Origin: Octopus vulgaris
Taxonomy: Eukaryota
Direction of reading: 5' to 3'
DNA: 64,000 nt
NCBI GenBank assembly: GCA_951406725.2
Contig: OX597826.1
Coordinates: forward strand, 34,224,001-34,288,000
Shown here: piece after piece, positions 30,626-49,546 of the stretch
Numbering within the stretch: position 1 is the stretch's first letter
Layout: every line of letters starts with the position of its first letter
The notes under the pieces: generated by a model
What the model was told of the DNA's origin: nothing
Seen by the model: the letters and a program-made list of their open reading frames with translations, nothing else
Databases searched by the model: none
Program-made: the position numbers and the translations under genes

Positions 30626-30784
30626 ACGTTAACGATACATTTATAATATCTAACAAGAAGCGAAATTGAATAGAAACTCAATCAGACTCTGTAGTCTAGT
30701 AGTTAAATCAGCGACACTACCTATTAACTGTATCACAATGCAAGTGGCTGAGAATTCCGCAGAGACGTGAACCTTTAATGCAAT

Positions 30785-31292
30785 ATTGGTTACAAATTTT
30801 GGTACAACCCAGCAGGTTAGTTGTTTGTTCCTTCTCGAGCCATGCCTTGTTTCCTTGGGATATAGGTTCCCCACCTGGACGGGACGCCGGTCTGTCGCAG
30901 GTGAACTGCAAGATGCAGGAGAAAAGAGTGAGAGAAAGTTGTGGCGAAAGAGTCAGCAGAAGTTCGTCATTACCTTCTGCCGGAGCCGCGTGGAGCTTAG
31001 GTGTTTCGCTCATAAATACACACATCGCCCGGTCTGAGATTCGAACCTGCGATTCCTCGACCTCGAGTCCGCTGCTCAAGCTACTAGGCCATGTGACTCC
31101 ACTGCAGGTTAGTAGGACGTGGTTAGTTGGTTACATCAAGCCAAGTACTCAACAGATACTTATTTTATCGACTCCGAAAAATATATAAGGCAAAGTCGAG
31201 CTCAGCGGAATTTGAAATCAGAACGTGAAGACGGACGAAACTTTGCAAAGCATTTTACTCGGCGTGCCAAAGATTCTGCCAGCTCGCCGGCT
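30785..31292 (-). mobile_element. SINE family B interrupted by family C SINE
   Basis: Tail acaaattttggtacaacccagca (30792-30814) and body 31114-31292 (cggaatttgaaatcagaacg...attctgccagctcgcc). Confidence 0.8.
30822..31103 (-). mobile_element. SINE family C, well preserved, with 10-bp TSD, nested in a family B SINE
   Basis: tRNA-like head tggcctagtagc...ggactcgag...ggttcgaatctc; TSD gcaggttagt at 30812-30821 and 31104-31113. Confidence 0.9.
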
Positions 31293-34490: not shown

Positions 34491-34804
34491 GCAGGAATAA
34501 CAGCAATAACTTTTATCGTCATTATGAGCGTCATGATAATCATTATTAGACATGTGTTAATGGCGGTGAAAATTTGTTTGATTTTGTAGAATTTCAGAAG
34601 CCAACCAGTGTGCGAATTTGTTGGAGCAGAGAACCAAATGACGTGGACTAATTGTTCCGGTTTTCTGTTCTCTGAGTTCAAATGTTGCCGAAAACAAATT
34701 TGCTTTCATCCTTTCTAGGTCAATAAAAGAATAAGTTAATATATTATTAGTTTGACAGAACTGTCTGTCTGTTACACAAAAGCTATTACAATGTTTGTTG
34801 TTGA

Positions 34805-35010
34805 AGGCGGCGAGTTGGCAGAATAGTTAGCACTCGGGGCAAACTGCTTAGCAGCGTTTCGTCTGTCGTCACGTTCTGAGTTCGAATTGCGCGGAGGTCT
34901 ACCTTGCCTTTCATCCCTTCGGGGTCGATAACATAAGAACCAGTTCAACATAGGTGTTGATGCAATAGACTGAACCCCTTCCCTGAAACTGGAACCCACG
35001 TGCCAGAATA
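34805..35010 (+). mobile_element. SINE family B (preceded by an older fragment at ~34620-34735)
   Basis: ggcggcgagttggcagaatagttagcac...gttctgagttcgaatt...gcctttcatcccttcggggtcgata. Confidence 0.88.
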
Positions 35011-35957
35011 ATAAAGATGTTTCCGTTCTTCGTGTGCTATAGTAATGGGTGGTAGACTTATCCCACAGCCGAATCATCAAAACCGTTTGGTCCTTGGGTG
35101 ATTCCATGAGAATACGTCGTCTCATAAGCATTTGGGCATCTTTGGTTTGAGAATAACTGATTTCCAGCATCACAGAAACCCTAAAAAATATAAGCAAACG
35201 GTAAAATATTATAAACGGAACTTAAAACATTTCTGAGATTGGTTAAATTGCAAGATCAAGAGTGACCTGGCAAGAGGAATGGTATATAGTAACTTTAATT
35301 GTTCTCTGTCAGGAAAGGTATCAATCTGATATTTAAAGCTGCAAGACACTTGTCAAGGAAGAGAAAATAAAATCATGTAAGCATTTTGGCATCTCTTGAT
35401 ATATACATTTTCATTGTAACTCCATTCATATAAATATACACATCTTGTACACATCATTCTAGATAACTTCTCTATAAGCAACTTATCTACAATGATATAT
35501 ACAGGTTTCAGAAATTTTCAATTCTAAATTTTATTATAAGAAGAATCTATATATTTACAAAGAACTGAAATTATAAGTAAGAATATATGCTGCGGGATTC
35601 CTGTAGAAATTAAGTATTGTGATAGTCACAGAATATTGTCTTCTCCACAAATCTCTTACTATATAAGTAATATATTTATTACTCACCAAGAAATTATGAT
35701 TTGGAAATGGAACTCGTTGCCGTAACAATATTAAAAATTCGTCAAATTGTATCAATATAAGTATTTATATATGACTGTGAATGTGTTGGAGTTTGTGTGC
35801 GAGCTGTAGGAGAGAACATGATCAAAGCCAAAGGGCGGTCTAACGAAAATAGACGTGGAATTATGTTCATGTTTGAAAATATGTCTGCGAGAGTATACAT
35901 ATATGCAAACGCATATATACTCACACAAATATACATATAACATATGTCTAGATATGT

Positions 35958-46281: not shown

Positions 46282-46638
46282 TTCTTTTATTCTTTTATTC
46301 TTTTATTTGTTTCAGTCATTTGACTGTGGCCATGCTGGAACACCGCCCTTAGTCGAACAAATCAACCCCAGGACTTATTGTTTGTAAGCCTGGTACTTGT
46401 TCTATCAGTCTTTTTTGCCAAACGTAAATACATCGGTTGTAATGCAATGCTGGTGGGGACAAACATAGACACACGCGCACACACACGCGCACACACACAT
46501 ATATGACAGGCTTCTTTCAGTTTCTGTCTACCAAATCCATTCACAAGGCTTTGGACAGCCCAAGAGTAGAAGACACCTGACAATATACCACTAAGTGGGA
46601 CTGAACCAGAAAACATGTGCTTGGTAAGCAAGCTACTT
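46282..46638 (-). mobile_element. SINE family A, 3' part (head displaced to 48907-48944 by an insertion)
   Basis: (ttctttta)3 tail, cagtcatttgactgtggccatgctgg...ggcttctttcagtttc...gggactgaacc. Confidence 0.9.
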
Positions 46639-48906
46639 TATTTTATAAATTTGTCATATAGACAGTACAGAGAGCTTTGCGAGCTGGACAAACACATTAA
46701 TGAATGAAAATGAATTATAATGAATAAATGAGAGACGAAACCCAACACCCACCGATTGGATTTTTCTCGAAAACATATTTTCTTATTTTTTTAAAAATCA
46801 ATATAAGGTTTCGAACCTTTTACAAGGAGGAGGCACTAAAACCTCTTACTTAACATATTTTCTTTTTTCTTTCTTAAAACACAAAATTGAGGTTATAAAC
46901 CACTACAGAATAGTCCAATAAGGTGAGGTTTCAAAGTCTGTAACGAGGGTCTTTCCCCTCCTACTCTTCGGTATTTTCATCATTATCTTCACCACCTACT
47001 CATCGATATATTCATCATTATCTTCAATGCCGCTTGAGTTCCTGTATCCCGCCATTTCCTATGCCTCACTTATGTAGGACATGTAAGTCGTGTAAGGGCC
47101 ACCCGGCCATATGCGACACTCCTCCCCAAATCCTTTAATCCTTTCCCACAAGGGAAACCTTATGACTTCCACAGCTATCTGCGGAGGCCATTCGGGATCC
47201 CGTGTGAAGGGCATATCTACGGTTTCTTTAAGTTCTTCTACTATTTTTCCACCTCCCCGCCCTTGTAGAAAAATATAATTAATTGATCATCTTTTAAGGG
47301 TGGGGGTGGTTTCTTCCACCGTGGGTGGCACAACTTCGGGACATGCAGTCGGCACATCATCTCCCTGCTGAGATGACCCGTTCTTCTTCTTGCCTTTTTT
47401 CCTTTTCTTCCTGGCTTCGGGAGAGTGGAGCCCTTCCGCTTTGTCCGGAGACTCTCTCCCGCCTCCCGAAGCCTTAGGTTCCTTCGGCGGGCAACTATTG
47501 TTGCCCGCCTTCTTCCTTTTTAATCCTTTTTGAGTTGAGGAGGCTGAAGCTTCCTCAACCACATCCACCTCTCCCTTTGACGGGGTAGGGGAGGTGGCAT
47601 CTGGTGACTGTTCCAGGACCTTACCATGGTCCTGGGGGCAGTTCCTTTTAATGTATACTGGCTGCAGGCACGAGTGACACTTTGGGGGGACGTCCCTCAA
47701 GTATCACCGGATACATGCAGCCAGTCATTTTCAAGAAATCTGGAAAAACCAGTTCTGTTGCGGCCGATGGGGTCCTCAGTGTCAAAATCGCTTTTGACCC
47801 TTCCCAATCGACCGCCGGCAATACTCTTACATTTAAGAGCCTGGGCCCGCCATCTGCCAGTCCCCGTCGGATGGTATCTTCAATCCAATCCGCTTCTGTG
47901 CCCGGGGGAAGCCCACATATCCAGGTTCGTATTAATTTTCTTCCACAATATGACGGGAGAAACAGGATTTCCTTGCCTTCTAAAGGCTGACTCGCAAACT
48001 GGCGAGCCTTTTCCCCGTTGTCAAACAGCAACCATACGGTTGCATGTTTGACACCACTGGATTTTACAGAGGACAAATGTTCTTTAAGTTCATTTTTTAT
48101 GACTTGTTTTGGGAAGACGGTGATGGAATTAAGAACTTTAGAATATATTCTAAGTACCACCGTCTTCTCTTCCATATCTTTTAACCATTGCTTAGGCGGG
48201 TTAATTACCCACTCTAAGACATGTCAAAAAAACAGTTCAAAAGTAGTTCAAAAGACAGACTGCCAAAAAATTAAACCGAATAAAAATAAAACAATATAAA
48301 GGGGAGGGGAGGAAACTGAAATTAAAGTAATGAAAAGAATGAACCAAAACTTTTTAGAGAGAAAGAAATAATAGAAGGGAAAAGTAAAACAAAAATCTCA
48401 CAAATAGCACAGACAGGGAATACTTTGTATAATACTCCAAAATGGTAATCCAAATGGCTTATTTCATTCTATTTTTTTTTGGCGAGATACGCCCACTAGA
48501 ATTCACAAGAAGAATTTTCCAAAAAATTCTCAATTCACCGTTACGGCCAAAATTTAACACAACTGTAAGACAGTTAAAAAATCATTCTAAATTTCTTCTA
48601 GGTACTCCTTAACAGGAACAACATTATTTTCAAACAAAAGTTTGGCAGGATACGCCTACCAAACCAATAATTTTCACAATTAAGTGAATAATGTTTTCAC
48701 TCAGTCTCCAGCAGACTAGAGCCTAGTGAGGACTTGTTGCTTGTAAACAATAATTTGCAACATACAACAGGTCCCCATTAGACCCCCAAATTCTTACCTT
48801 ACGGCTGAGCATTCAAAAGTCTTCAATTTAAGACGGCTTTCAAAAACACGTCTTACATCTTCGGTGTCAAGTACAACACTGACTTGCACATACGCAGAAA
48901 CAACCT
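46639..48906 (-). mobile_element. ORF1-only non-LTR retroelement (half-L1/Tx1-like), 2268 bp, 15-bp TSD
   Basis: TSD gtaagcaagctactt at 46624-46638 and 48907-48921; single gag/ORF1-like frame; A-rich 3' end; no EN or RT recognisable. Confidence 0.85.
46996..48175 (-). pseudogene. L1/Tx1-like ORF1 (gag-like) with CCHC-type knuckle; one frameshift, in-frame stops
   Basis: ORFs 47648-48175 and 47287-47700 join by removing one base of the G6 run 47684-47689, giving YPVILEGRPPKCHSCLQPVYIKRNCP; a K/S/P-rich linker follows; the frame stays open past TGA 47287 to TAG 47059 and TAG 46996. Confidence 0.8.
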
Positions 48907-48944
48907 GTAAGCAAGCTACTTACCACACAGCCACTCCTGCGCCT
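48907..48944 (-). mobile_element. SINE family A 5' head, separated from its body
   Basis: Reverse complement reads aggcgcaggagtggctgtgtggtaagtagcttgcttac. Confidence 0.9.
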
Positions 48945-49159
48945 ATATGTATAAATATACATATGTGTGTGTGTGTGTGTTTGTGTGTGTGTGTATAAAT
49001 ACAATTATATATATGGTTAACTATTGTATATTTATCTGTCTCACTCCATATACACAAAGATAGATATAGATAGAGAGAGAGAGAGAGTAAGAGAGAAAGA
49101 GAAAAAGATAGATTGTTATGGACATAGATATATATAACTAATACATACTGGGTTAAATA

Positions 49160-49546
49160 GGCGCAGGAGTGGCTTGCTTACAAACCATATGGTTCTCGAT
49201 TCAGCTCCACTGTTTGGCACTTTGGGCCAGTGTCTCCTACTCTAACCTCGGGCCGACCAAAGCCTTGTGAGTGGATTTGGTGGACGGAAACTGAAAGAAG
49301 CATGTCGTATATATATATGTGTGTGTGTGTGTTTGTGTCTTTGTCCCCCCATCATCGCTTGACATCCGATGCTGGTGTGTTTACGTCCCCGTAACTTAGC
49401 GGTTCGGCAAAAGAGTCCTGATTGAATAGGGACTAGGCTTATAAAGCATAATTCCTGGCGTCGTTGTGCTCGACTAAAAGGTGGTGCTCCAGCATGACCG
49501 TATTCAAATGACTGAAACAATATATATAAAAAGAATATATATAAAA

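Follow-up and report, generated by a model that had tools for sequence, protein, structure and literature searches.

Structure of the Element and Its Locus

The window analyzed here is a stretch of 64,000 nucleotides from Octopus vulgaris (assembly GCA_951406725.2, contig OX597826.1, positions 34,224,001 to 34,288,000). Within it, a perfect 15-bp direct repeat at 46624-46638 and 48907-48921 encloses 2,268 bp of an ORF1-only retroelement lying on the minus strand, and the element and its repeats in turn interrupt a SINE. The features at the locus, in window coordinates, are as follows:

46291..46623, minus strand: rest of the host SINE, presumably comprising a B-box-like motif, a CORE-like middle, a CA repeat and an A-rich tail
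46624..46638, minus strand: downstream 15-bp copy of the SINE target
46639..46675, minus strand: ~35-nt 3' tail common to the short element and a two-ORF LINE, with a 4-bp hairpin at 46652-46664
46639..48906, minus strand: full-length ORF1-only non-LTR retroelement with a type A 5' UTR, 4.7% from the family majority
46996..48226, minus strand: broken ORF1 (family length 424 codons) with its start deleted, frameshifts and an in-frame stop; ends approximate
47638..47679, minus strand: CCHC zinc knuckle, in which the window copy has Y for H
47690..48223, minus strand: two predicted RRM-fold domains, placed from a model of the L004 copy
48547..48906, minus strand: type A 5' head
48907..48921, minus strand: upstream 15-bp copy of the SINE target, of which positions 1-11 act as the duplicated target and the last ~4 bases are likely element-supplied
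48922..48943, minus strand: 5' head of the host SINE, severed by the insertion, which we take to be its A-box-like part
about 49157-49520: second, inverted copy of the same SINE

In the window copy, a 27-nt deletion near 48226 removed the start of ORF1, and the ORF further shows a deletion of 6 nt, two insertions of one base each and an in-frame stop. ORF1 is preceded by a 5' region of ~680 bp and followed by a 3' region of ~350 bp, both shorter than the ~730 bp and ~360-420 bp of the original prediction. That prediction was right in giving the element one ORF, but its length is 424 codons in the family, or 338 in the majority frame, rather than ~370-390. The zinc knuckle was also described correctly, as GRPPKC..C....(H>Y)....C: the window copy reads GRPPK-C-x2-C-x4-(Y)-x4-C, and its relatives have H at the Y position. 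Searches of the element and of the whole window by tblastn with the ORF2 of the partner LINE described below found no EN or RT match, in agreement with the earlier view that there was no room for either. Three ORF fragments from the window had zero matches in Pfam, and relatives gave just weak matches to the knuckle. Elsewhere in the window, GC-richer stretches at 30703-31185 and 34775-35221 were noted to contain open frames of 137-161 codons.

Copies, Heads and Reading Frames of the Family

A DNA search of the 2.8-Gb genome, in which 40 of 2,076 candidates were scored, gave at least 46 matches to the element, and most of the matches listed stop at one identical 3' base. Full-length copies numbered 42. 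Nine of these have the type A head of the window element and 33 have an unrelated type B head of ~140 bp, with a body identical in kind. The expectation of further ~2.3-kb copies with the same ends was thereby confirmed, as the copies share both ends and none runs into an ORF2. The median distance of the full-length copies from the family majority is 3.0%, and that of the window copy is 4.7%. An Rfam search gave only sub-threshold miRNA matches on simple repeats and no tRNA match.

No intact ORF was present in any of the 42 full-length copies, and the window copy is a dead, decayed member of this multi-copy family. The majority frame has 338 codons, and 14 copies with a run of six A near 47243 have a frame of 424 codons, which adds a C-terminal domain likewise kept in frame by diverged families. 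In 17 of the 42 copies the run has five A, and the frame then stops at 338 codons; together with the lack of an intact ORF, this indicates that source copies without a full-length ORF1 may sometimes have moved. Both the five- and the six-base forms of the run at 47243 also occur in short-read contigs from three runs. At 85% likeness, contigs of two runs, which we tentatively take to be RNA, covered 27 bins of 30 in one run and 23 in the other, a coverage that is not proof of transcription.

Target Site and Host SINE

The apparent TSD is one fixed sequence, located 22 bases into an abundant SINE, at every locus examined. This was assessed with 24 bases from the family 3' end, flanks left out, for which there were 67 exact matches, all of them used. 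The 15-mer target, within four edits, followed 65 of these 67 ends, with its first six bases exact in 57, and other DNA followed the remaining two. The original prediction of 2268 bp bounded by a perfect 15-bp TSD was thus exact in repeat and length, but the repeat is not a random TSD, as the same SINE sequence is found at nearly every locus. The A-rich end that had been described is not a variable poly(A): the terminus of the copies is a fixed ...GAAATA that abuts the target directly. Exact junctions between tail and target occur 717 and 363 times genome-wide for two variants of the target (reversed controls, 0), and exact empty sites 26,278 and 27,671 times.

The host SINE is abundant and putatively of tRNA type, with a presumed tRNA-derived head and CORE domain. 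Octopus OR1, to which it may be comparable, has been classed as a CORE-SINE (PMC4824008). A third SINE variant flanks, on both sides, another group of short families (L224, L226, L228, L231-L233, L244), and the short families may be tracking successive SINE subfamilies.

A Two-ORF LINE That Shares the Target and 3' Tail

The tail-target junction pattern also led to a LINE with two ORFs. Its reference copy (L093) is 5,444 bp long and lies between two copies of the same SINE target, as expected for sequence-specific insertion, and its family has endonuclease (PF03372), RT (PF00078) and zf-RVT (PF13966) domains, with intact ORF2 frames in L128, L131 and L132. The nearest solved relative of the ORF2 is human L1 ORF2 (E 3e-67), and among 120 homologues listed, one (37%) bears the name "Transposon TX1 uncharacterized protein". 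The LINE has two ORFs, an APE endonuclease, an RT, a C-terminal zinc finger and an L1-group ORF2, as expected of the Tx1 clade, to which it may belong. Its 40 best matches are 99-100% identical over 1.5 kb and all reach the target, though the query itself contained the target. The ORF2-bearing relative that the original prediction proposed to look for thus exists, with the target and 3' tail of the short element. LINE families from a zf-RVT search were set aside as helpers, their targets being different.

Similarity between the short elements and this LINE is confined to the last ~35 nt, which blastn misses (best E 0.44), and there is no DNA similarity outside this tail. The 4-bp hairpin in the tail pairs in 93% of cells, with eight two-sided changes and a two-sided change in the window's family, evidence that is modest, as there are just four pairs and related rows inflate the statistics. 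The end of L113, a LINE with another target, is partly similar to the shared tail.

We examined 30 junctions, which comprised 17 with a short-clade ORF1, four with a short-type 3' end, five with an ORF2, one with a LINE-type end and three that could not be resolved. A second co-targeting LINE lineage was absent from these 30 junctions, and the older relatives L095-L097 resemble L093. At several sites, the elements are stacked. One SINE (L274-L276, G000:C1:223689300-223708800) holds seven head-to-tail short units of ~2.0 kb followed by a full LINE, with nine target copies in all; the seven units may have arisen by repeated insertion or by tandem duplication. Another SINE holds short element, LINE and short element in that order, and diverged families are also stacked at single SINE sites. 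A separate arrangement was seen at L088, where a short fragment, bearing the 3' tail on each of its strands, lies in inverted arrangement between two target copies.

Based on the shared target, the shared tail and the mixed arrays, the short elements appear to borrow their ORF2 from the LINE, and the two-ORF L1/Tx1-type LINE is likely their helper. Divergence is 3% in the window's family but about 1% in the youngest LINE family, so the former is the older of the two and was probably served by an earlier subfamily of that LINE. We are largely confident that the window copy is a dead HAL1-like ORF1-only element at a fixed site in the SINE head, where it was likely copied in trans by the ORF2 of a co-targeting LINE.

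Selection on ORF1 and Origin of the Short Clade

A protein search of the genome with ORF1 gave 138 scored matches, and the loci of 50 of these were fetched. In none of the 50 does an ORF2 follow the short-clade ORF1. The original prediction had allowed that all other copies might continue into ORF2; the loci examined instead support its proposal of an ORF1-only, non-autonomous family whose copies share the same two ends. A tail-target junction was found downstream of ORF1 in 24 of 30 and 22 of 23 matches in two fetched sets, and most elements of the clade are 1.9-2.3 kb long. A young sister family has intact ORFs of 414 codons, and 17 of 20 compared copies of it are 95.5-99.5% identical to L251.

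Purifying selection acts on ORF1 between the short families, as the original prediction had proposed checking. Among eight ORF1s, dN/dS of the core was 0.06-0.23 in 26 of 28 pairs, the other two being a saturated pair and a near-identical pair with 0.55. Within the window's family, dN/dS was 0.76 for variants present in one or two copies, versus 0.27 for variants present in at least five copies, the latter comprising 21 changes only. Such selection is most simply explained by a benefit in cis to the RNA that encodes the protein. This bears on the possibility that the elements are indeed non-autonomous and site-specific, but that their ORF1 serves the helper or the host over its own RNA, by co-assembly with the helper ORF1, which has been proposed for elements of the HeT-A type, or by damping the helper, or that the true helper is an unsampled LINE. 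In favor of a role in the helper's service are the excess of short elements over the LINE among the 30 junctions at the target and the frame-ending A-run shared by many copies of the window's family; multimerization of the proteins of ORF1-only elements with that of the autonomous partner has also been proposed (PMC5786205). With selection pointing to a cis benefit, and a single co-targeting lineage seen at the junctions, we consider these alternatives unlikely.

The short ORF1 is only 26% identical to that of the partner LINE (E 9e-18), so the short elements did not arise from that LINE by a recent deletion, and it is no closer to the partner than to other LINE ORF1s of the genome. In an unrooted ORF1 tree of 17 rows (L125 was dropped), the eight short rows form one side of a branch with 100/100 support, and the partner LINE sits with the other LINEs among nine two-ORF rows. 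None of these nine sampled LINE ORF1s is a parent of the short clade, whose long branch may reflect fast change. It is therefore very improbable that the short elements are repeated, recent products of internal deletion or early polyadenylation of the LINE, with ORF1 as a mere passenger. Such an origin would account for the identical target and the similar last 35 nt, and an array does contain a LINE copy with an internal deletion, but it conflicts with the divergence of the ORF1s, the branch that parts them, the lack of DNA similarity beyond the tail and the purifying selection between short families.

Predicted Fold of ORF1

An AlphaFold model of ORF1, built for the L004 copy from a 15-row alignment, is confident for residues ~25-200 and disordered past that. 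Every Foldseek match listed is an RRM-containing protein (best E 1e-4). Each half of the confident region fits RRMs when aligned with VIA-align (best Z 9.1, rmsd 2.9 over 83 residues; Z 8.3, rmsd 2.6 over 75 residues). ORF1 is thus predicted to consist of two RRMs and a CCHC knuckle, and it may bind RNA. Two RRM folds plus a knuckle correspond to the RRM+CCHC type of ORF1 (type I in the scheme quoted there) that PMC5203782 ties to Tx1 elements. Mammalian L1 ORF1 architecture (Transposase_22) had no match in the Pfam search, and L1 ORF1 structures were absent from the fold-match lists, which is evidence neither way.

The large protein collections held only one close relative, an uncharacterized 281-aa protein of Octopus sinensis (XP_029652367.1, 69% identity). 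This annotated gene is itself the ORF1 of a short-clade element. Such sites will be mis-annotated wherever a pipeline registers a "TSD" or an "uncharacterized protein" of 281 aa.

Independent Insertions and the 5' Junction

Left and right copies of the target often disagree with one another, but they also have 11 variant bases in common versus 3.8 expected (0 of 20,000 shuffles; 42 of 48 pairs were usable, having no indels), sharing above chance that indicates independent insertions. Divergence is 5.8% in the host SINE halves versus 3.0% in the elements, though mutation rates may differ between the two. Common descent of the constant flanks, with a single SINE insertion amplified as a SINE-plus-passenger composite, would fit the SINE head upstream and SINE body downstream of nearly all copies, but is largely refuted by these shared variants, by host halves about twice as diverged as their passengers, by occupied SINEs that belong to different variants, and by the fact that elements with unrelated 5' heads, numerous diverged families and even a 5.4-kb LINE use the same base and stack there in mixed arrays.

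In its final bases, the upstream "TSD" goes with the element family rather than with the target. Target position 13 is T or A in two SINE variants, and in all 16 pairs whose left and right copies are mismatched for T versus A the left copy carries the base typical of the element family. By family, they divide into five among the 49 pairs of the window's family, eight among the 22 of the young short family and three among the 13 of the LINE. Both sides match the target at this position in one pair. Of the variants of the right copy, the left copy also has 10 of 29 at positions 1-11 but 2 of 25 at positions 12-15 (75 of 89 pairs). The simplest reading is that the true duplication is ~11 bp and that a few target-like bases would come from the 5' end of the RNA. 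In one family (L237, L263, L265, L266, L269), the upstream target copy is always 14 bases, whatever the downstream copy reads, a constancy that fits an element-supplied leader. Four loci (L021, L029, L030, L238) have ~10 extra bases between the target and the type B head.

Proposed Mechanism and Relation to Known Elements

We hypothesize that the short element would be transcribed from its own 5' UTR and that its ORF1, with the predicted RRM-RRM-CCHC organization, would coat the element's own RNA, possibly as an RNA chaperone. The helper ORF2 would then bind the 3' hairpin tail, nick the SINE site and prime reverse transcription, and the few bases of target-like sequence with which the RNA begins would anneal to the upstream cut and finish the junction. 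Every insertion leaves a full target on either side, so that later elements can stack in tandem. We regard as possible, if rather doubtful, a further arrangement in three tiers, in which an old, independent ORF1-only clade parasitizes a SINE-targeting LINE that itself parasitizes the SINE, with each family's RNA bearing a short leader, matched to the target, by which it would put its own form of the landing site into the genome. If that were true, targeting would be partly RNA-templated and could track SINE subfamilies through turnover.

ORF1-only derivatives of LINEs are known, and HAL1, HeT-A and Ag-Sponge are described in PMC5786205 and PMC5753468. Like mammalian HAL1, which depends on a two-ORF LINE, the octopus element is a non-autonomous member of the L1 group with ORF1 only, and it likely needs such a LINE as well. 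It differs in that its ORF1 is predicted to be RRM-RRM-CCHC rather than the coiled-coil/RRM/CTD of mammalian HAL1, in its site specificity, in its lack of a variable poly(A) tail and in the distance of its ORF1 from that of the sampled helper. HeT-A (Jockey) and Ag-Sponge (CR1), as described in PMC5786205, likewise accompany an RT-bearing partner; unlike the octopus element they belong to other LINE clades, and HeT-A adds to chromosome ends rather than to an internal sequence target.

In HeT-A, as at the octopus SINE, mixed head-to-tail arrays are formed with the RT-bearing partner. Among target-specific Tx1 LINEs, PMC4494074 lists Tx1L in Tx1D, Tx1-Mar in the DNA transposon Mariner-N4_AMi, with SINEU riding Tx1-Mar into it, and Keno in U2 genes. 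There too, a LINE and its dependants favor one site in another repeat, and a TSD parts tandem insertions. The octopus system differs in having a tRNA-like SINE head as its target, and its dependant, instead of being a non-coding SINE, is an ORF1-only clade that encodes a protein. Drosophila R2 and the R2/R1 SIDEs (PMC3414825) similarly show use of the helper's exact site and TSD via a shared 3' end, but the SIDEs encode no protein, originated by internal deletion and target 28S rDNA.

Repeat annotation of Octopus vulgaris includes 13 recently active L1-Tx1 families, according to the main text of PMC13282606, in which a term search gave no mention of HAL1, ORF1, nesting or target. No ORF1-only or SINE-targeting Tx1 element has been reported in cephalopods in the literature we searched; Repbase/Dfam or the repeat library of PMC13282606 may list these families as L1-Tx1. 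The octopus system joins ORF1-only LINEs to target-specific Tx1 LINEs, as a protein-coding dependant clade homing to a SINE whose promoter region is split by each insertion. The existence of intact, young short elements and a helper ORF2 makes the question of why HAL1-type elements retain ORF1 directly testable, and the LINE endonuclease offers a new candidate for a site-specific integrase, its target being 15 bp long. A further intact two-ORF LINE of L1/Tx1 type, with a 1,140-codon frame (L116, L117, L118; G000:C2:114466400-114473600 and others), occupies a fixed site in a different repeat and forms tandem arrays of ~5.4 kb.
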